64,000 bases of DNA from contig CATWNM010000007.1 of NCBI GenBank assembly GCA_958352145.1, positions 5,865-69,864 of the forward strand, in the 5' to 3' direction. Each line of letters starts with the position of its first letter. Position 1 is the stretch's first letter. Shown here piece by piece: positions 36,881 through 60,525 of this stretch. A model generated the notes under the pieces. That model did no database searches. It worked only from the letters and a program-made list of their open reading frames with translations, and was not told where the DNA came from. The position numbers and the translations under genes were made by a program. Origin of the DNA: an uncultured Eubacteriales bacterium (GTDB lineage Bacteria; Bacillota; Clostridia; Oscillospirales; CAG-272).

Positions 36881-38183
36881 ATGGCGGTATTATTAAGACA
36901 AGTATAAAATAAACGTGATAGTAACGGTGTTCTGACGGGTAAGCCAGGCACCGTTTACGACGTTAATATCAAATATAATTCGCCCGAAGGCAAAATGACC
37001 TATTCCCAAAAGGGCTTTGCAACCAAAAAGGAAGCTACACAGCACGAAGCTGAAATGAAAACCAAGCTCGCAAATCCCGTCTATACGCCCGTTGCTTCCT
37101 CACAAGGCAAGCAGACGGTCAAGGAGTATATGGAGGAATGGGTAAGAGATACACGGAAAAGCAAACTTGCGCCCAAGCACGTTTGCAAGCTACAAGGGCT
37201 ATATAAAAAACCACATTGTGCCGAACATCGGACACGTTCAACTCAATCAGCTTTCGCCCGCTATGCTTGACAATATGTTTCAAAAAATGTTCGATAGCGG
37301 ATTGTCAAACAGTAGCGTCAGATATGCTCAAAGAATTATGAGCGTCGCATAGGAACACGCAAGGAAGTATCACTACATAGAACACAATGCCGCCCGTGAT
37401 GTTATCACGAAATTTGGCAAGCAAGGCAAGACACCCGACCCGTACACCATAGGACAAATGCAAGATTTTATGGGCAAGGTTATCGGTACGGAATGGGAAA
37501 TGCTCGTTATGCTTGCGGGTATGTATGGCTTGCGTATGAGTGAAATTCTCGGCTTGCGTTGGCAAAATGTAGATTTGGAAAAAGGCACGTTCGGCGTTGT
37601 CGAGCAATTACCGTTTAATCTCCCCGCAGGGACAAAAGAGATTGCGGAAATGGCACCGACAAAATCCAACGATAGAATATTGCCGATCACCGATCTGACG
37701 CGCCCATATTTTGAGCAAGCGAAAAATCTGCAAGAAAGGAGGAAGGAGCTTACAGCCGCCGCAGGGACACCGTACTATGACAATGACCTTGTGATCTCAA
37801 AGCCCGACGGCACACCTTATCGGCGCGACGTTGTTTCAAACAATTTCGGTCAGCTTGTACGGCACCTTGAAATGCCGCATATTCGTTTTCACGATTTGCG
37901 GCATACGGCGGCAACCAATATGCACCAACTCACGGGCGACTTTTATACTGTCGGTGAGATTTTGGGGCATACGTTGAAAGGTATCGGAATGTCGCTTGGT
38001 ATCTCAACCAACCTTGAAGCAGTAACGGCACAGTACGTTGACGTGCGTCTTGAACGTAAAAAATCCGTCCTTGACGTTTACCACAAGGGCACTACACCCG
38101 CCGAAAGGCGACGGAGAAAAGAAGCAAGGCGACAGCGGCAAGGAAGAAAAGCCAAAGAAAAAAGTAGTGATATAGAGCTATAA
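36881..38183 (+). pseudogene. int: Tyrosine integrase (Tn916-Int-like) with three lesions
   Basis: Collinear with the left integrase and retains RxxxR..HDLRHT..GH..Y-region motifs. It has a TAA at about 36905 (RQV*NKR vs RQVKNKR), a frameshift near 37165 and a TAG at 37350-37352 (SVA*EHA vs SVAFEAA). Confidence 0.85.
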
Positions 38184-38357: not shown

Positions 38358-38404
38358 GACAAAGTGAAAACCCTTGAAAACATAATGTTTTCAAGGGTTT
38401 GTTG
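38358..38404 (+). repeat. Right copy of the island-flanking direct repeat, overlapping the tRNA-Ser 3' end and its terminator hairpin
   Basis: GACAAAGTGAAAACCCTTGAAAACataatgtTTTCAAGGGTTTGTtg. The hairpin AAACCCTTGAAAAC/GTTTTCAAGGGTTT lies directly 3' of the tRNA on the minus strand. Confidence 0.75.
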
Positions 38405-38491
38405 GCGGAGAGGGCGGGATTCGAACCCGCGTGCGATTGCTCGCAAACTGATTTCGAGTCAGCCCCGTTATGACCACTTCGATACCTCTCC
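38403..38491 (-). tRNA. tRNA-Ser: tRNA-Ser (anticodon CGA), class II with long variable arm, CCA encoded
   Basis: The reverse complement is GGAGAGGTATCGAAGTGGTCATAACGGGGCTGACTCGAAATCAGTTTGCGAGCAATCGCACGCGGGTTCGAATCCCGCCCTCTCCGCCA. It has a 7-bp acceptor stem, a T-arm GCGGG-TTCGAAT-CCCGC, an anticodon loop CT-CGA-AA and a variable arm of about 17 nt. Confidence 0.88.
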
Positions 38492-52381: not shown

Positions 52382-54211
52382 GTGGTAAGAGAAGATTTGA
52401 GAAACATTGCGATCATTGCGCATGTTGACCACGGCAAGACCACGCTCGTGGACGAGATGCTCCGGCAGGGCGGTATTTACCGGGAAAATCAGGCGATGAC
52501 CGAGCGCGTTATGGACTCGGGCGATCTCGAACGGGAGCGGGGAATCACCATTCTCGCGAAAAATACGGCGGTGCATTACAACGGCGTCAAGATCAACATC
52601 GTCGATACGCCGGGGCACGCGGATTTTGGCGGCGAGGTCGAACGCATTTTGAAAATGGTGAACGGCGTTTTGCTGTTGGTAGACGCGGCAGAGGGGCCTA
52701 TGCCGCAGACCCGGTTCGTGCTGGAGCGCGCGCTGCAGTTGAACCACCGCGTCATCGTCGTCATCAACAAGATCGACAAGCCGGACGCGCGCATAGCGGA
52801 AGTGCAGGACGAGATTCTCGAGCTTTTCTTCGAATTGAACGCGAATGACGAACAATTGGACAGCCCTATGGTATTTTGTTCGGGCAGAGCCGGTACGGCG
52901 TCGCTCGACCCGGAAATTCCGGGCACGGATTTGCGCCCGCTGTTCGATAAGATTTTGGAGTATATGCCGGCCCCGTCCGGGGATGAGGATGGGGAATTGC
53001 AGATGCTGGTTTCTTCGATCGATTACAACGATTATGTCGGCCGCATCGGTATCGGCCGGATCGAGCGGGGCGTGATCCGGCAGAATCAGGAGATCATGAT
53101 CTCCAATTTCCACAGCAAGGACGCGCCGCGGCGTGCGAAAGTGGTCAGCGTCTATCAGATCGATGGTTTGACCCGCGTTCCGGTCGAAACGGCGAAAGTG
53201 GGCGATATCATTTGCTTTTGCGGCGCGGAAAATATCAATATCGGCGACACGGTGACGTCGCTTTCCTGCGTTGAACCTTTGGAGTTTGTCAAGGTCAGCG
53301 AGCCGACGATGGAAATGACGTTTTCGGTCAACGACAGCCCGTTTGCGGGCAAAGATGGCAAATATGTGACTTCCCGCCATCTGCGTGAGCGCCTGTACCG
53401 CGAGCTTTTGAAGGACGTGTCTCTTCGCGTCAGCGATGGGGAGACGACGGAGAGCTTCAAGGTGGCAGGACGCGGGGAAATGCATCTTTCCATTTTGATC
53501 GAGACTATGCGCCGGGAGGGATATGAACTGGCGTGCAGTACGCCGCATGTGCTGTACCGGGAGATCGACGGCGTAAAATGCGAGCCGGTGGAGCGCGTCA
53601 TCATCGACTGTCCGGACGCCTATAACGGCGCGGTCATGGAGAAGCTCGGTTCCCGCAAAGGCGAGCTTGTCGCCATGGAGCCGCGCGGCAGCCGCACGAG
53701 ACTGGAATATCTTGTGCCCTCGCGCTGCCTTTTCGGCTATCGCAGCGAGTTTCTCACAGACACGCACGGCGAGGGGATTCTCAATACGATTTTTGACAGC
53801 TATCAGCCGTATCGCGGCGAAGTGACTGTGCGTTTTACCGGTTCGCTGGTCGCAAGCGAAGCGGGCGAGTCCACTTCTTACGGCGTGTTCAACGCGCAGG
53901 ACCGCGGCCAGATGTTTATCGGCGCGCAGTGCCCCGTATATGAGGGAATGATCGTCGGTTCTTCTCCGAAGCAGGGGGACATCGTTGTGAATGTGTGCAA
54001 AAAGAAACATCTTACGGCGATCCGCAGTTCGGGCGCGGATGAAGCGCTTCGGCTGGTCACGCCGAAAATCATGAGTCTTGAGGAAGCGATCGAATATATC
54101 GCCGACGACGAATTGATTGAAGTCACGCCGAAAAACGTCCGTTTGCGCAAACGTATTTTGAATACCGAACTGCGCCTCAAAGAAGAGGCCAAGCTCAAAA
54201 AGCAGCAGTAA
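52382..54211 (+). CDS. typA: Translational GTPase TypA/BipA
   Basis: IRNIAIIAHVDHGKTTL, DTPGHADFGGE and NKID G-motifs, with an EF-G-like domain order. The start is either GTG 52382 or TTG 52361. Confidence 0.92.
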   Translation: MVREDLRNIAIIAHVDHGKTTLVDEMLRQGGIYRENQAMTERVMDSGDLERERGITILAKNTAVHYNGVKINIVDTPGHADFGGEVERILKMVNGVLLLVDAAEGPMPQTRFVLERALQLNHRVIVVINKIDKPDARIAEVQDEILELFFELNANDEQLDSPMVFCSGRAGTASLDPEIPGTDLRPLFDKILEYMPAPSGDEDGELQMLVSSIDYNDYVGRIGIGRIERGVIRQNQEIMISNFHSKDAPRRAKVVSVYQIDGLTRVPVETAKVGDIICFCGAENINIGDTVTSLSCVEPLEFVKVSEPTMEMTFSVNDSPFAGKDGKYVTSRHLRERLYRELLKDVSLRVSDGETTESFKVAGRGEMHLSILIETMRREGYELACSTPHVLYREIDGVKCEPVERVIIDCPDAYNGAVMEKLGSRKGELVAMEPRGSRTRLEYLVPSRCLFGYRSEFLTDTHGEGILNTIFDSYQPYRGEVTVRFTGSLVASEAGESTSYGVFNAQDRGQMFIGAQCPVYEGMIVGSSPKQGDIVVNVCKKKHLTAIRSSGADEALRLVTPKIMSLEEAIEYIADDELIEVTPKNVRLRKRILNTELRLKEEAKLKKQQ

Positions 54212-54384
54212 TATGCGCCTTTCGAAAAACTCTGTTTTTCGAAAGAAAAGACCGGTTCACTCGCGTCTTCGTGCCGCTTACGCGGCACTCGCGCAGCCAC
54301 AAGGTGTAAAAAAGCTGGCAAAGCCGGCTTTTTTACGAAACTTTATACGATTTTGTTTGTGGGAATATTTTTTTGACACACTAA

Positions 54385-54421
54385 GGCCGTCTGAAAACAA
54401 AGTTTTCAGACGGCCTGTTTT
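54385..54421 (+). terminator. Hairpin terminator between typA and azlD
   Basis: GGCCGTCTGAAAAC-aaa-GTTTTCAGACGGCC followed by TGTTTTA. Confidence 0.6.
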
Positions 54422-54425
54422 ATGG

Positions 54426-54743
54426 TTAGAACAGCAGCATACCCGCTTCCACTAAAAATACGGCGGCGCACGCGCCGGTCGCCACAGTCAAAAGCGCTTT
54501 GCCGCGATAGGCCAGAACAAGCGCGGCGGCAAGACCGGCGGCGGCTGACCAGATGCTGTTGGTCGCATAGAGGATCGCGGGGAACGTCATCGCCGCCAGC
54601 ACCGTGTACGGCACGTAGTACAGAAAAGCGAAAAGAAAGCGGTTTTGTATCCGGCGCTTGACCAGAACGAACGGAACGGCGCGGATCAGATATGTAACGC
54701 CGGACATGACCAAGAGATAAGGAAGAAACGCAGAAAGCTCCAT
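54426..54743 (-). CDS. azlD: Branched-chain amino acid exporter small subunit AzlD
   Basis: 105 aa and hydrophobic. MELSAFLPYLLVMSGVTYLIRAVPF is typical of AzlD. Lies directly after azlC. Confidence 0.8.
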   Translation of the reverse strand: MELSAFLPYLLVMSGVTYLIRAVPFVLVKRRIQNRFLFAFLYYVPYTVLAAMTFPAILYATNSIWSAAAGLAAALVLAYRGKALLTVATGACAAVFLVEAGMLLF

Positions 54744-55454
54744 TCAGTTTTCCTCCTTTACGGGAAAAAGCAGCGCGGCGGCGGCCGACGCGGCGACGGC
54801 GCAGATAATCATGGCAAAGCCGCCGGATACTTTGGACAAAAAAGGCGTATAGCGGAAAAGAACGCTGAGCGCGACGGCCAAACCGACGGCTGCCAGCACA
54901 TGCTTGTCCTCTTTGGCTTTTGGCGTGACGATCGCGATAAACATCCCGTACAGCGCGACGCCCAGCGCGCCGGTGACGATCGCCGGCAAAATGCTGCCGA
55001 GTACCGCGCCGCAGAGCGTGCCCGCTGACCAGCCGGCAATCGGAAGGAGCGCAAGCCCTGCAAAGTAGGCGGGCTCGATTTTTTGCGGATTGCCGATGGC
55101 GACGGCGAAAATTTCATCGGTTATGGCAAAGCCGAGCAGCCACCGCCATCCGCTGTGAAAATTTTTGCTTAGCTTTTGGGAAAGCGCGATGCTCATCAGT
55201 GCATACCGCGCGTTGACGACCAACTGCGTCAGCGCCATTTCGATTAGGGTGCCCGAAGCGGTTATGACCGAAAGTCCGGCAAATTGGCCTGCGGAAGTCA
55301 GATTGGTTACGGAAATCAGCATCGCTTCCAAAAGTGTACATCCGCTTTGAGACGCCAATACGCCGAATGCGAGCGAAACGGAAAAATAACCGAGTCCGAC
55401 CGGCAGTCCGCCGCGCAGTCCCGATTTGAAACTCATAAAACATGCCTCCAACAA
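54744..55454 (-). CDS. azlC: AzlC family branched-chain amino acid exporter subunit
   Basis: 236 aa. GLGYFSVSLAFGVLA...TNLTSAGQFAG is typical of AzlC. An alternative start lies at 55436. Confidence 0.85.
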   Translation of the reverse strand: MLEACFMSFKSGLRGGLPVGLGYFSVSLAFGVLASQSGCTLLEAMLISVTNLTSAGQFAGLSVITASGTLIEMALTQLVVNARYALMSIALSQKLSKNFHSGWRWLLGFAITDEIFAVAIGNPQKIEPAYFAGLALLPIAGWSAGTLCGAVLGSILPAIVTGALGVALYGMFIAIVTPKAKEDKHVLAAVGLAVALSVLFRYTPFLSKVSGGFAMIICAVAASAAAALLFPVKEEN

Positions 55455-55483
55455 AAATGGTATCGCACAGTTGCGCTTTGGCT

Positions 55484-55512
55484 ATTATACGACAAAATTG
55501 AGCGTTGTGCAA
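55484..55512 (-). promoter_or_regulatory. Candidate sigma-A promoter for azlCD
   Basis: On the minus strand, TTGCAC, a 17-nt spacer and TATAAT lie about 30-50 nt upstream of the azlC start. Confidence 0.5.
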
Positions 55513-55868
55513 TGGGGAATTTTAAAAATATGGCGGCGGATGGCGCTTTGCGGCGATGCGGTCAAAAAAAGAGGGCGTGTGCCCTCTGAGCTTGTCAAAA
55601 AACCAAAGGTTTTTGACAAAAAAGGCTTGGTTCGCTCGCGCCGCGCGCCGCAAAAGCGGCACTTGCCAAGCCGTAAGGTGCATACAGAGCGGCGCATGTC
55701 CGCTCTGTATGCCTTTTTTATTGAATTTGTTATGTGAGATGAAAAAGATGGTCATTGCGGACTGTTTGCATATTTGTGCATATTTGTTTTTTTACGCAGG
55801 CTCATTGGTTGAAGTGAATGTGAGAATTAAATATCATAAAGCACCACATGCTGTATAAGAAAATCAAG

Positions 55869-56051
55869 TTAGTTCTTTGTGGACTCTATTTTAATTTCTC
55901 CATGTTCTTGCTCGTAACTTGAAATGTATATTTTGCAAAGATGCTCAAGCAAATTACTTACACTTCTTGTTTCTTTCTTTGAAATATAACGCAATTTTTC
56001 TAAATATTCATTTTGAAGATGAAATGTAAAAGGTGTTTTGTTCGTCGGCAT
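55869..56051 (-). CDS. Ribbon-helix-helix (Arc/CopG-like) DNA-binding protein, copy 1
   Basis: 60 aa. The N-terminal beta-strand-like TPFTFHL is followed by two short helices (EYLEKLRYISKKETRSVSNLLEHLCKIY). The RHH call comes from this pattern only. Confidence 0.55.
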   Translation of the reverse strand: MPTNKTPFTFHLQNEYLEKLRYISKKETRSVSNLLEHLCKIYISSYEQEHGEIKIESTKN

Positions 56052-56214
56052 ATAGCTTTTTCCTCAGTGAACAGATAAAAACAATAGTTTACTATAGATT
56101 ACCAAAATTAAATCCATTTTTATACACCAACGGTAAAACAACAGTTATTGAATAATGACATATTTTTTACATTTTTTTTGATGAATCATTTGTTTGAGGG
56201 AGTAAAATGTTACT

Positions 56215-56391
56215 TTATTGATTATTAATTTCTATTTTTCCATGTGCTTGTTCGTATTCTTTTATATAGGATTTGCACAGATGTTCCAGTAAATTACTTA
56301 CGCTTCTCGTTTCCTGTTTTGAAATATAACGTAGTTTTTCCAAATATTCATCTTCCAGATGAAATGTAAAAGGAGTTTTATTTGTTGGCAT
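56215..56391 (-). CDS. Ribbon-helix-helix protein, copy 2 (tandem paralog; below the 60-aa ORF-track cutoff)
   Basis: My hand translation gives MPTNKTPFTFHLEDEYLEKLRYISKQETRSVSNLLEHLCKSYIKEYEQAHGKIEINNQ (58 aa). It differs from copy 1 at roughly ten positions. Confidence 0.55.
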   Translation of the reverse strand: MPTNKTPFTFHLEDEYLEKLRYISKQETRSVSNLLEHLCKSYIKEYEQAHGKIEINNQ

Positions 56392-56566
56392 ATAGATATA
56401 TCCTTTCCTTACGGTATAATAACGGTTGCATATATATATTATCAGAAATAAATAATTTAATATACGCCAACGGTTATGATATTATGGTTAAACAGTTGCA
56501 TAACAGTTTAATTTATGATAGAATTATTTTTAAATATATGGTAAAAAGTGAAAGGATAACATTTGT

Positions 56567-57214
56567 ATGTTAAAAGATATTCCATACAGCGTAATAAAAA
56601 AGGACAAGCGTGCATATGAGATTATGCTGCTTCGAGAGCAATCCGGCTATACATATACAAAAATAGCCGAAAAATTTAACATATCGGTCTCGGAGGCAGG
56701 GCAACAATACCATTTCCTAAAACAGAAACAGATGCGTTTATATATCCGTCATGTTGCGGTAGTGCTGGGGCATGAAGATCTTTCTCAAGTCAGAAAAGTT
56801 TTTGACGACGCATATGAATGCTATGTGGATGAGATGTACCTTTGCGCATATTTAGAAAAGAAATACGGAGATATTTTGACTGAATATCGAGAAGGCGAAC
56901 CGGGGATGCCGGAACAATGGATTCGAAGTCTGCCGCCGTTTAAGACTGCAATGCGTAAAAAAACAGTTTCCCGCATCGTAGAAATGCGGGAAACCAAACA
57001 CATGGGGTATTCGGCAATTGCAAAAGAATTTTGTATAACGCCGGCAAAAGCCAGGCATACATACGAATGGTTTTATTATGAACAGAGCTTAAAAATTATT
57101 GAAGCCTTGCAGGAAAAAGCGAAAAGCCCTGAAGAAAAAGAAGCAATATGGAGAAATTACTATAAGGGAAATTTGTCCTACAAAAAGCGCTATGAATTGC
57201 TGACGAAAAAATAA
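56567..57214 (+). CDS. Protein with two internally repeated HTH (sigma-70 region 4-like) modules, function unknown
   Basis: 215 aa. Repeat 1 is AYEIMLLREQSGYTYTKIAEKFNISVSEAGQQYHF. Repeat 2 is VSRIVEMRETKHMGYSAIAKEFCITPAKARHTYEW. Confidence 0.55.
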   Translation: MLKDIPYSVIKKDKRAYEIMLLREQSGYTYTKIAEKFNISVSEAGQQYHFLKQKQMRLYIRHVAVVLGHEDLSQVRKVFDDAYECYVDEMYLCAYLEKKYGDILTEYREGEPGMPEQWIRSLPPFKTAMRKKTVSRIVEMRETKHMGYSAIAKEFCITPAKARHTYEWFYYEQSLKIIEALQEKAKSPEEKEAIWRNYYKGNLSYKKRYELLTKK

Positions 57215-57253
57215 ATGCATGATCCTATAAAAGATATAGACAATGGGATACAT

Positions 57254-57502
57254 TTACCACTGAACAGCATTTTCCGGAATGCATTCAGAAATCGGCGAGT
57301 GAAGTTCATCAACGATTTTATCTTTCAAACCGGGAATCGAATACAGATATATGGTTCCTATTAAGCCGTTATAATCTTCTTCACTGAGAATTACTGCATT
57401 CCCGTCTTTGGTGCTGATATTTACAGGTTCCTTGTATTTTATCGTCTGCTTCAGTATATTGGAAATGTTTTTACGAAAATTTGTGATATTGGTATAGTAC
57501 AT
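57254..57502 (-). CDS. Phd/YefM-family type II antitoxin, no adjacent toxin gene
   Basis: 82 aa. The N-terminus TNITNFRKNISNILKQTIKYKEPVNISTKDGNAVILSEEDYNGL matches the Phd/YefM fold pattern. Confidence 0.7.
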   Translation of the reverse strand: MYYTNITNFRKNISNILKQTIKYKEPVNISTKDGNAVILSEEDYNGLIGTIYLYSIPGLKDKIVDELHSPISECIPENAVQW

Positions 57503-57545
57503 TTTGTGTTATCTCCTTGTGTACATTATAGAATACACTGTGGAT

Positions 57546-58724
57546 TCAGTGCGGAATGGGCGCAAAGCTGTCGTCGATGGTGATGACGCAGAAAAAGGAC
57601 GGGTCCCGCTCGCGTGCCAGCGCCATGATTCTTTTGCACAGTTCTGTTTTGCTTATGGAAAGATTCTGCGGCGCTACGCAGTCGAAGATCAGATTTGTAT
57701 GCGTTGGGCCGCGAACTACCCGCAAATCATGGATCGACAGCGCTGGGTCGATGCTTTTGACCGCATCGGACAGCCATGTGCGCAGGTCGTTGATTTCCGG
57801 GTCGGCTGTGACAATCGGATCCATATGGATAACCAGATGCAGGCCGAGTTCGTTTCGTATGTCCCGCTCAATGTTGTCGATGACGTCATGGCTGGCAATG
57901 ACATTGGCCTCGGCTGCGACTTCTACGTGTACGCTGGCAAACTGACATCCGGGACCGTAGTCATGTACGATCAGATCGTGCGTGCCGAGCACGCCCGGAT
58001 AACGCATGATTTTTTGCCGGATTTGTTCTACGAATTCGGGTTTCGGCGGCTTTCCCAGAATTGGATCGAGCGTTTCCCGGATCAGGCCGAATCCGCTGTA
58101 AAGGATGAATACGGCGACCGCCACGCCCATATAACCGTCTAGTTCCCATTTCGTGAAGTGGGAGATCAGCGCAGCGACCAGCACGGCCGTTGTGGAAATC
58201 GCGTCATTGCGGCTGTCCGCGGCGGTTGCGCTCAGGGTTTGGGAATCAATTCTTTTCCCCAGATTCCGGTTGAACAGCGCCATCCACAGCTTGATTAAAA
58301 TCGAAGCGGCCAGCACGGCTGCGACCGGAAAGCTGAATTCTACAGGCGCCGGATGCAATATTTTTTCAATGCTGCCCTTTAAGAGTTCAACGCCGATCAG
58401 CAAGACGAGGACGGAGACCATCAGACCGGACAGATATTCGTAGCGCGCATGTCCGTAGGGATGATCTGCGTCGGCTGGCTTTTCGGCCATTTTGAAGCCG
58501 ATGAGGCTGATGACGCTTGAAGATGCGTCGGAAAGGTTGTTGATAGCGTCCGCTGTGACGGATACGCTGCCGGAAAGCGTTCCGACGGCAAGTTTGCCGC
58601 AAAACAGCAGCAGATTGCATAAAATGCCGGTCAGGCCGGAAAGTCTGCCGAAAGCTGCGCGCACGGCCGGTTTTTCGGTATGCGTGTAATCTTTGACAAA
58701 CAGGCGGATCAGTAGATTGGTCAT
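57546..58724 (-). CDS. Cation diffusion facilitator (CDF) family metal transporter
   Basis: Start MTNLLIRLF at 58724. TM motifs AINNLSDA, HPYGHARYEYLSG and DSRNDAIST, plus a C-terminal cytoplasmic domain. The upstream 83 codons of the ORF-track entry are not credible. Confidence 0.88.
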   Translation of the reverse strand: MTNLLIRLFVKDYTHTEKPAVRAAFGRLSGLTGILCNLLLFCGKLAVGTLSGSVSVTADAINNLSDASSSVISLIGFKMAEKPADADHPYGHARYEYLSGLMVSVLVLLIGVELLKGSIEKILHPAPVEFSFPVAAVLAASILIKLWMALFNRNLGKRIDSQTLSATAADSRNDAISTTAVLVAALISHFTKWELDGYMGVAVAVFILYSGFGLIRETLDPILGKPPKPEFVEQIRQKIMRYPGVLGTHDLIVHDYGPGCQFASVHVEVAAEANVIASHDVIDNIERDIRNELGLHLVIHMDPIVTADPEINDLRTWLSDAVKSIDPALSIHDLRVVRGPTHTNLIFDCVAPQNLSISKTELCKRIMALARERDPSFFCVITIDDSFAPIPH

Positions 58725-58821
58725 AGAAGCACTCCTTTGCATCTTTTTGGCGGCGCAGGCCGGTTTTGCGCAGCGCGCGGTCTTTGCCTTTAGAAAAATC
58801 CGCCGGTAAGGCGGATTTTTT

Positions 58822-60525
58822 CTAAAGGCGTTCGTCTTTGACGATTTTATTTCTTTTGATTTTATTTGTAGTCGTTTTTTCAAACTCGGCGTCGCGCACT
58901 TTGACTTTGGCGATGTGTTTATAGTGCGGGAGCGGTTCTGTCGCTTTCGCAATGTCCGCACGGATACGCTCAACCGGGTTTTCGATCCCTAGTTCCGCAA
59001 TTTTTTCTTCGGAAAGGAAAACCTCAGCGCAGAGCGAATCTTCCAGGCCGTGTTCATTTTTCAGCGCGTAGACGACAGCTTCGGCGACGTAGGGAATCGC
59101 GGCGATATAGTTTTCGATTTCCTCAGGAAATACGTTTTTGCCGTTTGTGAGGACGATCAAATTCTTTTTGCGTCCAGTGATATACAATTGCCCGTGTTCG
59201 TTCATCCGGCCGTAATCGCCGGTATAGAACCAGCCGTCCCGCAGGCATTCGGCGGTCAGCTTTGGCTGCTTGTAGTAACCGAGCATGACGACGTCGCCCT
59301 TTACGCAGATTTCACCGTCGCCGTCCGGCGTGACGTTTTCAAATTTGATCTGGCAGCAGGGAAGCGGAATGCCTACGGTGTGCCAGTCGTTGAACGCGTC
59401 GTGATTTGCGCTGACAAGCGGTGAGCATTCGGTAATGCCGTAGCCGTTAATCAAAGAGATGCCGATGCCGTCGAAAAATTCGCCGAGTTCCGGCCGCAGG
59501 GGAGACCCGCCGCAGACAATTTTTCGCAGATTGCCGCCGAAAGCTTTGTGTACGGAGGCAAAAAGCGTCTTTCGCAAATCTATGCCGGCCCGGCGCAGTT
59601 TGTTGCTGATGCGGATCATTTTGAACAGCGTTTGTTCCTTGCCGTTTTGACGCGCGTTGGTCAGAATTTTCTTGTAGAAGACTTCGACGAATGCGGGCAC
59701 AAGGTAAACATAGTCCGGTTTGTATTCCTGTAGGTTTTTCAGGACCATTTTCAAACTTTCGTTGATGCAGATCGTCGCGTGTTTGTGCAGGGAGACAAGG
59801 AGACCGGAGACCGCCTCATAGGTATGATTGTAGGGGAGCACGGAGAGCGACCGGCGATAGACGGTGGAAACCTGCAATCCGTAGTATACGCTGGAAACAA
59901 GATTGTGTTCGCTCAGCATGACGCCTTTTTGCATGCCGGTTGTACCCGAGGTATAGACCAGCATTTTGAGGGCGTTCGGGTCGCTGGTCATGGAGGCGTA
60001 CCGTTCGTCCCCGTCTGCATACAATTTGGCGCCTTTGGCTTTCAGCGCTTCAAAGCTGAGAAAATTGCCCAGATCTTCTTCGCGGTCTATGCCGACAAAG
60101 TATTTGACCTGCGGCATTTTTGCGGCGTTTTCCATTAGGTCGCTTTCATAGCGCTTCGTATAAAAGACAACTTCGCTGTCGCTGTCGTTTACAATGTTCT
60201 GGATATCGCAGAAAGGCAGTTCCTTGTCGATTGGGACATACACGCCGCTCGATTTCAAAACCGTCAGGTATACCACGATCCAGGAATAGGAATTTTCGCC
60301 CAGCATCGCGATATGCCGGTCTCCAAAGCCGAGGTCGGTGAGCGCCGTGCCAAGCGCCATCGTATCGGCATAAAAATCGCGGTAGGAAATCTCTGCGATC
60401 TTGCCGTCCTTTCGAAATTTAAACGCGGTTTGATCGCCGGCGGCTTTGATCGCCATCTCCAGCATTTCTTTGATGGATTCGAATTTTTCTACTTTGTAAT
60501 ACTCGTAGGGCAGTTTATCTGTCAT
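58822..60525 (-). CDS. AMP-dependent long-chain acyl-CoA synthetase
   Basis: 567 aa. AMP-binding motif LVYTSGTTGMQKGVMLSEHN, then GYGITE, YTGDYG and GRKKNLI. Confidence 0.88.
   Translation of the reverse strand: MTDKLPYEYYKVEKFESIKEMLEMAIKAAGDQTAFKFRKDGKIAEISYRDFYADTMALGTALTDLGFGDRHIAMLGENSYSWIVVYLTVLKSSGVYVPIDKELPFCDIQNIVNDSDSEVVFYTKRYESDLMENAAKMPQVKYFVGIDREEDLGNFLSFEALKAKGAKLYADGDERYASMTSDPNALKMLVYTSGTTGMQKGVMLSEHNLVSSVYYGLQVSTVYRRSLSVLPYNHTYEAVSGLLVSLHKHATICINESLKMVLKNLQEYKPDYVYLVPAFVEVFYKKILTNARQNGKEQTLFKMIRISNKLRRAGIDLRKTLFASVHKAFGGNLRKIVCGGSPLRPELGEFFDGIGISLINGYGITECSPLVSANHDAFNDWHTVGIPLPCCQIKFENVTPDGDGEICVKGDVVMLGYYKQPKLTAECLRDGWFYTGDYGRMNEHGQLYITGRKKNLIVLTNGKNVFPEEIENYIAAIPYVAEAVVYALKNEHGLEDSLCAEVFLSEEKIAELGIENPVERIRADIAKATEPLPHYKHIAKVKVRDAEFEKTTTNKIKRNKIVKDERL

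Follow-up and report, generated by a model that had tools for sequence, protein, structure and literature searches.

A GC-poor islet at a Clostridial azlC-CDF junction as a probable mosaic of mobile-element accessory modules

The window analysed here is a stretch of 64,000 nucleotides from an uncultured Eubacteriales bacterium (contig CATWNM010000007.1). Between azlD/azlC (54426-55454, minus strand) and a CDF transporter gene (minus strand, stop codon at 57546) it carries a short AT-rich islet with four small genes, coding for two ribbon-helix-helix (RHH) proteins, RHH_A and RHH_B, a protein of 215 amino acids (aa), here termed F215, and a Phd/YefM-family antitoxin. The islet is best read as regulatory or accessory cargo of mobile genetic elements, arranged around an uncharacterised protein family; it is neither a functional toxin-antitoxin (TA) system nor a known defence system. 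On balance, we regard it as a mosaic of two mobile-element accessory modules at a recombination-prone junction, and its odd composition, with nothing but regulator-type genes, is explained by cargo modules moving through a chromosomal hotspot. The anatomy and the evolutionary history of the islet can be stated with high confidence.

According to this explanation, in the first module the RHH proteins would bind AACNGTT boxes, placed one helical turn apart over the F215 promoter and over their own promoter, and would thereby keep F215 off; F215, a non-enzymatic protein with two sigma-region-4-like helix-turn-helix (HTH) units, would most likely act as a sequence-specific transcription factor. 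The repressor|F215 pair would ride in a variable slot at the head of compact elements of the Rep(PF02407)-FtsK/TcpA-Xis-Int or serine-recombinase type and, since it stands alone in the window, it would be left here without mobility genes to act on. The second module would be a former Phd-YoeB pair, in which deletion of the toxin left a harmless antitoxin with its promoter.

Anatomy of the islet and the repressor|F215 module

The GC content is 0.26-0.32 across 55700-56750 and 0.35-0.43 across 56600-57650, against 0.50-0.60 in the flanks (300-nt windows), in agreement with the sharp drop between azlCD and the CDF gene that a sequence-only reading of this DNA had noticed by eye. The same reading had described four small genes of DNA-binding or antitoxin type, including tandem RHH paralogs, a protein made of two HTH repeats and an orphan Phd/YefM antitoxin convergent with F215, with no integrase or repeats around them; the genes proved real by open reading frame (ORF) listing and profile searches, and each of these descriptions stood up to the analyses given below. 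At the islet, searches found no integrase or recombinase, relaxase or coupling protein gene, no tRNA and no bounding direct repeat, and no direct repeats of the attachment-site (att) type bracket 55588-57540; the islet was therefore rejected as an integrative mobilizable element (IME) in itself. The best matches of the islet proteins in PADLOC-DB 2.0 had E values of 0.017 (F215) and 0.0092 (Phd), neither of them significant, with zero matches for the RHH proteins, and Rfam gave no credible RNA element over 54000-59500.

RHH_A (55869..56051, minus strand, 60 aa) and RHH_B (56215..56391, minus strand, 58 aa, divergent from F215) are paralogous Arc/CopG-type repressors. RHH_B matches RHH_5 with 26.6 bits (cutoff 26) and the Arc-like repressor family phrog_3180 with an E value of 6.6e-10; RHH_A scores 22.5 bits with the former, below the cutoff, and 8.6e-8 with the latter. 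The two proteins are 84% identical across 55 aa. Together with their own upstream regions, the genes form a 340-bp tandem duplication (55888-56134 and 56228-56474, 76-79% identical), which accords with the tandem arrangement already proposed.

The divergent control region between RHH_B and F215 (56392..56566) contains AACNGTT boxes at 56421, 56469, 56491 and 56502, an F215 promoter with an extended -10 element, TGATAGAAT, at 56516-56524, and a ribosome-binding site (RBS) at 56551-56556. Upstream of RHH_A, the region 56052..56214 holds the duplicated and partly degenerate operator copy, with AACGGTA at 56129 and AACAGTT at 56140. The motif AACRGTT occurs 26 times in the window; five occurrences fall within 56140-56508 (about 370 bp), and four of these within the 88 bp of 56421-56508. 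Arrays of AACNGTT with 11-bp spacing overlap the F215 promoter in seven of seven loci of different genera in which an RHH gene of the window's type (RHH1) is divergent from F215, namely the window, L016, L033, L036, L045, L046 and L057. All seven have a common layout: the RHH start with its RBS, a proximal box pair, a conserved TATACGCCAACGGTT block and then two or three AACNGTT boxes, followed by a TATAAT-like -10, an RBS and the F215 ATG.

Boxes of this kind were not found in F215 loci with a partner of the Xre type or of a second RHH-like type (RHH2), nor upstream of six or more other RHH1 paralogs in the window's genome. Thus, the boxes belong with the RHH-F215 pairing, and the box search upstream of the paralogs led us to reject AACNGTT as an operator common to all of them. 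With moderate confidence, the architecture suggests that RHH binds the AACNGTT array and represses both the F215 promoter and its own. The resemblance to the Arc, Mnt, CopG and omega repressors lies in the small RHH protein of 58-60 aa and in the short repeated boxes, apparent operators, with helical-turn spacing over divergent promoters; unlike those systems, the AACNGTT operator and the F215 target are undescribed, and there are a tandem duplicate and eight genome paralogs, most of them without boxes.

The 2.2-Mb genome (G000), in which F215 is a single gene, has tiny AT-rich islets with at least eight scattered paralogs of the RHH1 type (68-91% identical) and about five genes of the second, 58-aa RHH-like type. 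The sites of the RHH paralogs are C2:765-1277, C2:92073-92634, C2:138162-138359, C3:5220-5393, C3:19529-19792, C17:41436-41492, C18:1-627, C18:38998-40526 and C32:2-58; some of these islets have Xre-like or RelE-like neighbours and several lie at contig ends.

F215 (56567..57214, plus strand) was characterised by profile search, structural modelling and profile-profile comparison. Its residues 18-49 match Sigma70_r4_2 with 29.8 bits (cutoff 25.7), and the C-terminal unit of a relative, P0351, matches Sigma70_r4. The AlphaFold2 model, obtained with a 30-sequence family alignment, is all-helical (pLDDT 93.3, pTM 0.82) and consists of two equivalent units at residues 14-66 and 131-184, each made of an HTH and then a long helix; indeed, residues 18-60 align to 136-178 when the two halves are compared profile against profile (E 8e-6). 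The model units and this internal repeat make the "twin HTH" description right. Outside the HTH units, the most conserved feature of the family is an EYRxGEPGMP...PPF linker. A Foldseek search, proposed along with the sequence-only reading, was run with the model against the PDB and BFVD: it returned no full-length relative, with no such match at E<=0.001, and its matches were local, covering 44-58 residues of sigma-70 region 4 (SigE, SigW, SigC, SigR), of the DeoR HTH and of KorA. The family profile gave zero matches against PDB sequences.

Region 2 of sigma factors was absent in both sequence and fold searches, and on this ground F215 was rejected as a full sigma factor or sigma-70 family member and should not be filed as such: TIGR02937 scored 24.6 bits, under its cutoff of 42.9, the middle and C-terminal parts had no region-2 Pfam match, and the window contains no candidate for an adjacent region-2 partner gene. 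Most likely F215 is a sequence-specific transcription factor, an assignment made with low confidence; action by binding of RNA polymerase is less likely, and the possibility that it is a sigma-mimic or a toxin appears doubtful.

A word-indexed search retrieved 224 full-length homologs at 50-64% identity, and an exhaustive profile search among 1.84 billion representatives delimited the family as 182 clusters at E<=0.001, a small and Clostridial set. Nearly all of the clusters contain either fragments or stand-alone proteins about 215 aa long; the few longer relatives show no informative domain fusions, only extra r4-type HTH matches. Comparison by tblastn with 50,697 phage and 72,556 plasmid records found nothing, and a phage or plasmid origin was rejected on this basis. 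These data define an uncharacterised Clostridial family of twin sigma-r4-like HTH proteins having a conserved repressor partner and a predicted operator; if F215 is no more than a transcription factor, the gain is an annotation of some use, and the islet an unremarkable instance of the decay of mobile elements.

Of 43 full-length F215 copies, 41 are intact; six others are frameshifted, truncated or interrupted by a stop. A frameshift in the conspecific contig L086 was discounted as a probable assembly error, since many other genes of that contig are split too. The coding sequence includes a terminator hairpin on the minus strand (56964..56996, 13-bp stem and U7, dG -22.9, z -5.4). This minus-strand hairpin reaches -24 to -27 kcal/mol only in the window and in L012, a locus of another species of the genus, and ranges from -2 to -21 in the other loci. 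Probably it halts read-through from the Phd and CDF genes antisense to F215.

Alleles of the junction and the orphan antitoxin

The azlC|CDF junction exists in at least three structural alleles within the species, and in four (A-D) when the sister species is counted. Allele A, found in the window and in many metagenome contigs, contains a dispersed repeat, the two inverted RHH genes with their operators, F215 and the orphan Phd. In the conspecific allele B (L087), the repeat is followed by a single RHH gene co-directional with F215, by F215 and by an orphan Phd. Allele C, also conspecific (L093-L097), has no repeat and reads azlC, YoeB (minus) and Phd (minus), RHH (plus) and F215 (plus), CDF, with no Phd on the right; allele D (L012, genome G008, another species) comprises the repeat and RHH leading into F215, with no Phd. 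Three of the 19 species of the genus carry the F215 family. In the third of them (G012) the F215 copy lies elsewhere, and the junction is occupied by four paralogous lipoprotein genes over 5.7 kb; the remaining congeners lack the CDF-azlC synteny and so do not provide an empty-site comparison. The lipoprotein-like genes of G012 (L079, contig C17, 4140-9815) code for 421, 263, 500 and 523 aa, each with a signal peptide and then Cys, in a 5.7-kb segment of lower GC content.

Divergence between the window and allele D is uneven. In the core flanks identity is about 80-86%, and azlD has a synonymous divergence (dS) of 0.97, whereas F215 is 96.9% identical, with a dS of 0.05 and a nonsynonymous divergence (dN) of 0.025. 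High identity extends from 6 bp before the F215 ATG to 18 bp past its stop; the left boundary (55513-55817) is again about 96% identical, and the RHH cassette that lies between, in inverted orientation, only 78-84%. It follows that F215 was recently exchanged between lineages and that the RHH cassette was replaced independently. No near donor of the window's divergent RHH cassette was present among the sampled loci (70-78% identity). Programmed inversion of the cassette was considered and rejected, given that the inverted cassettes are only 73-84% identical and have no recombinase or bounding inverted repeat. The junction can be described as a mosaic, recombination-prone hotspot that varies between and within species.

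The Phd gene (57254..57502, minus strand, 82 aa) is a clear member of PF02604 (46.9 bits, cutoff 29.8, E 2.3e-12); its family, Clostridial antitoxins of 82 aa, is very large, with 1320 homologs at 67-84% identity. Its promoter and RBS (57503..57540, minus strand; TATAAT at 57530-57525, AAGGAG at 57518-57513) are conserved with the Phd-YoeB allele. Contigs with an identical Phd protein are conspecific and carry the same islet. The contigs of allele C encode an 83%-identical Phd, while their flanks are 99.8% and 98.4% identical and their F215 99.55% identical to those of the window; here a gene for an 87-aa YoeB (PF06769) begins at the base right after the Phd stop. In the alignment with L093, promoter, RBS and coding sequence of Phd are all retained in the window and, past the stop, so are about 20 nt from the 5' end of yoeB, ATGTATCCCATTGTCTATAT (57234..57253, minus strand); this stub is all that stands directly downstream of Phd in place of a cognate toxin gene. 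The homology on the Phd side stops exactly where the conserved F215 3' tract (56561-57232) starts.

The stub and the intact pair in a conspecific allele indicate that the orphan Phd is what is left of a Phd-YoeB pair after deletion of the toxin, and with so little of yoeB remaining the pair is unable to function as a TA system. The case offers a base-level example of how an orphan antitoxin originates, with the toxin deletion visible between conspecific alleles. Compared with the YefM-YoeB and Axe-Txe systems, the window shares the antitoxin family, and a conspecific relative still paired with YoeB, but retains no more of the toxin than the stub. The two Phd alleles are 87% identical at the DNA level and lie on opposite sides of the RHH-F215 module, hence the Phd cassettes look like independent insertions. 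An ORF of 54 aa (57089-57253, minus strand) begins with the yoeB stub (MYPIVY...), immediately past the Phd stop, and goes on in antisense across the 3' end of F215; coupling to Phd could lead to its translation, but a junk fusion is the probable explanation.

The module at other loci and the alternative explanations

The comparison of F215 neighbourhoods, also suggested with the sequence-only reading, was run over 51 loci from Oscillospiraceae, Ruminiclostridium, Blautia, Christensenellaceae and others, 49 of them with usable flank. A small DNA-binding gene (RHH1, RHH2 or Xre) lies directly upstream of F215 in 35 of the 49. The partner is an Xre-type HTH_3 protein in 23 loci (21 divergent, 2 co-directional) and RHH1 in ten (7 divergent, 3 co-directional), while RHH2 occurs twice, in two other F215 islets of this genus; overall, 30 of the 35 partnered loci are divergent. 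Mobility hallmarks are absent in 22 loci, where no integrase, recombinase, Rep, FtsK or relaxase family with at least two members was found and where the large neighbours of F215 are assorted housekeeping genes. Solo islets like that of the window, small and AT-rich, are the commonest state of F215. As a separate observation, Ructibacterium gallinarum (L020, 360-3260 and 4000-5600) has two tandem Xre|F215 units beside two large serine recombinase genes; its F215 copies are 57-58% identical to that of the window.

Some findings weigh against the explanation that we favour, that is, accessory modules with RHH as repressor of a transcription factor. In alleles B, C and D, a single RHH gene precedes F215 by 22 bp on the same strand, the operon layout typical of TA pairs, and the module adjoins TA or abortive-infection (Abi) genes in at least seven independent contexts, so that it could be of that kind itself. 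The eight RHH1 paralogs without boxes in this genome leave the operator specificity unsettled, and allele D (L012) has no perfect AACNGTT box. A search for an F215 target motif shared by the F215-to-HTH gaps of five complete elements retrieved only 9-mers with one mismatch. Finally, an empty site, in which the terminator hairpin and the CDF 3' end would lie within 30 nt, had no match in metagenomes, where exact matching only was used.

The alternative that we take most seriously, although we still hold it to be unlikely, is that RHH-F215 is a TA-like or Abi module, in which F215 would arrest growth, for instance as a mimic of sigma region 4 competing for core RNA polymerase or blocking promoters. 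RHH would silence or neutralise F215, and the module would be maintained by addiction, or would fire on loss or titration of the repressor. The sequence-only reading had offered a TA or defence-type locus as an option that would lose ground if F215 homologs were non-toxic and never linked to antitoxin-like genes; such links in fact recur. Ruminiclostridium-type loci have a Phd-ParE pair adjoining Xre|F215, L061 has Phd-ParE at a distance of 5 kb, the G012 islet has DUF6290-ParE, HicA/HicB, DUF2442/HTH_59 and RelB, and the second G008 islet AbiEi-AbiEii and DUF3791; Phd-YoeB at the junction under study adds to these recurring neighbours. Also consistent with a TA-like nature are the operon-like RHH-F215 order, with a 22-bp gap or overlap, in alleles B, C and D and in L042 and L043, the predominance of solo copies that stay intact, the retention of the module in L046, which lost the rest of its element, and the recent horizontal transfer of F215. 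Moreover, sigma-like proteins of mobile elements, such as Tn916 Sig7-8 and pBS32 SigN, are lethal when over-produced (bioRxiv 10.64898/2026.10.01.756105).

However, the partner is divergent in most partnered loci, the window included, which therefore lack a bicistronic operon, and the partners represent three DNA-binding families that are unrelated or distant from one another. No match was found between F215 and any toxin, enzyme or PADLOC model; the RHH proteins, of only 58-65 aa, have a very short tail for toxin binding, and the window's genome has many orphan RHH paralogs and only one F215. About six F215 copies are broken with the partner persisting, a finding that fits either view. In a variant that we likewise consider rather improbable, repressor|F215 would represent a previously unrecognised selfish or defensive two-gene class of Clostridial mobile elements, with a sigma-mimic toxin gated transcriptionally and not by protein neutralisation; on loss or titration of the repressor, F215 would then arrest the cell, or exclude competing elements or phages, by occupying RNA polymerase or promoters.

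Among the closest known systems is the regulatory module of Tn916, in which Orf7, a sigma-r4-like protein, and Orf8 form a split sigma factor, Sig7-8, that auto-activates the main promoter (Gomberg & Grossman 2026, bioRxiv 10.64898/2026.10.01.756105). Sig7-8 is needed for excision and is lethal when over-produced, and Orf9 has been proposed to hold it off (bioRxiv 10.64898/2026.10.01.756105). The F215 module is similar in being carried by mobile elements, with a small HTH or RHH gene that precedes a divergent gene for a sigma-region-4-like protein, the two heading an excision and transfer set. Unlike Orf7, F215 is a single chain of 215 aa with two r4-like units and no adjacent region-2 partner of the Orf8 or RsoA type; it has no sequence homology to Orf7 beyond the HTH, and it is dispensable cargo, found here without an element. 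The plasmid sigma factor SigN of pBS32, which kills when derepressed (discussed in bioRxiv 10.64898/2026.10.01.756105), is likewise encoded by a mobile element, tightly repressed and host-harming, and might serve as a model for F215 if the latter is an effector, but SigN is a complete sigma factor and F215 has no region 2. If it is true that F215 is toxic or binds RNA polymerase, the host-killing finding made with Sig7-8 would extend to a single-chain, stand-alone cargo protein located beside TA and Abi genes.

Complete elements headed by the pair were identified in five instances (L016, L018/L008, L026, L037 and L057). Their order is partner (minus) | F215 (plus), an HTH gene, a 105-aa protein (p105), a PF02407 Rep, an FtsK-like protein and then Xis with a Tn916-type tyrosine integrase; alternatively, a serine recombinase on the other side takes the place of Xis and integrase. 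They resemble the compact IMEs of streptococci, which combine a relaxase of the rolling-circle replication (RCR) type (Rel_PF02407) with a TcpA/FtsK coupling protein (Coluzzi et al. 2017, PMC5357655), in the compact array and in the set of Rep, FtsK-like and Xis-integrase or serine recombinase genes; they differ in that Rep precedes FtsK in the Clostridial elements, of which the window holds only the cargo module.

The position and orientation of the pair, identical in all five elements, could point to a dedicated switch of the Rep-FtsK element, in which F215, as a Sig7-like activator of the excision and transfer operon, would be held off by RHH or Xre, the window being a leftover. The sigma-r4 match of F215 above the Pfam cutoff and the analogy with Tn916 speak for it, as does L046. 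This locus is 95.4% identical to the L016 type across RHH, the operators, F215 and 135 bp further; beyond that, 912 bp with the HTH gene are missing, 109 bp are shared and host DNA follows, so that L046 is demonstrably a deletion derivative of an L016-type element.

We nevertheless find such a dedicated switch rather unlikely. Among 401 genomes sampled evenly from the window's order, 8 have F215 and 16 have Rep, the two never being adjacent, and the one genome that has both carries them on different contigs; 15 of the 16 Rep-bearing genomes thus lack F215, and seven of the eight F215-bearing genomes lack Rep. Sister elements, with Rep proteins 63-80% identical, begin at an HTH gene of their own, and their slot is empty or filled with different cargo: one with an 80% identical Rep has a two-gene helicase-type system to the left of the HTH gene, and two more have an Xre regulator with ABC transporters or nothing. 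These differences imply that the conserved core begins at the HTH gene and that the slot to its left is variable cargo. In addition, F215 and the core are about 500 bp apart, with hairpins in between, and the search for a target motif shared by the gaps of the five elements found none. Neither the window nor its genome retains a trace of element genes; tblastn of the genome, which is 96% complete, found no Rep and only weak matches, at 22-29% identity, with the FtsK and Int probes. The repressor|F215 pair is therefore, with high confidence, exchangeable cargo and not the core regulator of these elements.

Accordingly, the view of the islet as the regulatory remnant of a lost mobile element, put forward in the sequence-only reading, is only partly sustained: Phd did lose its toxin, the pair heads elements elsewhere and L046 is a derivative of one, but the pair is exchangeable and the window has no trace of mobility genes. 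A further observation on the Rep-FtsK elements concerns L099 (G088:C9, 51-4633 and 5590-10660), where a Rep-FtsK-serine-recombinase mobilizable element lies directly beside a type II CRISPR-Cas locus with the Cas9 C-terminus, Cas1, Cas2 and a repeat array.

It is improbable that the islet is functionless decaying DNA with four relic genes. Deletion of the yoeB toxin, rearrangement and duplication of the RHH cassette, the patchy distribution of the family and its frameshifted or truncated members would fit decay; against it, none of the four ORFs is disrupted and their promoters and RBSs are good, conservation of F215 reaches 99.5% among conspecific alleles, nearly all full-length F215 loci are intact, the operator architecture is conserved across genera, and a lineage-specific protective terminator lies inside F215. 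Domestication of F215/RHH as host regulators of the neighbouring azlCD or CDF genes, suggested by the location between both transport loci and by fixation of the module at the junction in two species, is highly improbable in view of the different neighbours at almost every other locus, the restriction of the family to three species of the genus and the unrelated genes of G012 at the same junction.

Boundaries, dispersed repeat and flanking genes

On the left, the last block common to the window and allele C is an intrinsic-terminator hairpin, AGAGGGCACACGCCCTCT, with a U-run (55570..55587, minus strand, dG -13.8, z -3.65). Homology with L093 stops at 55587, and in L093 a hairpin matching this one trails yoeB. 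Originally this hairpin probably terminated the CDF gene, from which the islet now separates it. The right edge lies 5 bp beyond the CDF stop codon; from these two limits, the islet appears to have been inserted between the CDF gene and its terminator.

Next to the hairpin lies a dispersed GC-rich repeat of about 140 bp (55585..55725), which includes a strong hairpin with a T-run (55680-55712, plus strand, dG -26.9, z -5.5) and is present at this junction in alleles A, B and D and absent from allele C. The window's genome contains about 24-31 copies (24 blastn matches over 18 contigs), the congener G012 about 30 and G008 several, in both orientations, and the repeat looks like a miniature inverted-repeat transposable element (MITE) or a repetitive extragenic palindromic (REP)-like element. 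The idea that it travels together with the RHH genes was rejected. The AT-rich non-coding segment that follows (55726..55868) is single-copy in the genome and, up to 55816, common with alleles B, C and D.

The islet is bracketed by a perfect inverted repeat of 14 nt, CGATGCGGTCAAAA / TTTTGACCGCATCG, whose arms lie left of the terminator hairpin (55554-55567) and within the CDF coding sequence (57755-57768); in 3.2 kb, chance alone would give about 0.02 pairs of this kind. The CDF ORF (57546-58973, minus strand, 475 aa with a TTG start) is probably over-extended, its relatives and the conspecific gene calls having 392 aa and an MTNL(L/F)IRLF start. Elsewhere in the window (about 37527-38069 and 38403-38491), the integrase probe from the elements gave a weak match of the tyrosine-integrase type, at 27% over 187 aa, a short way upstream of tRNA-Ser, the sole tRNA gene of the window; the match may be the remnant of another integrated element.

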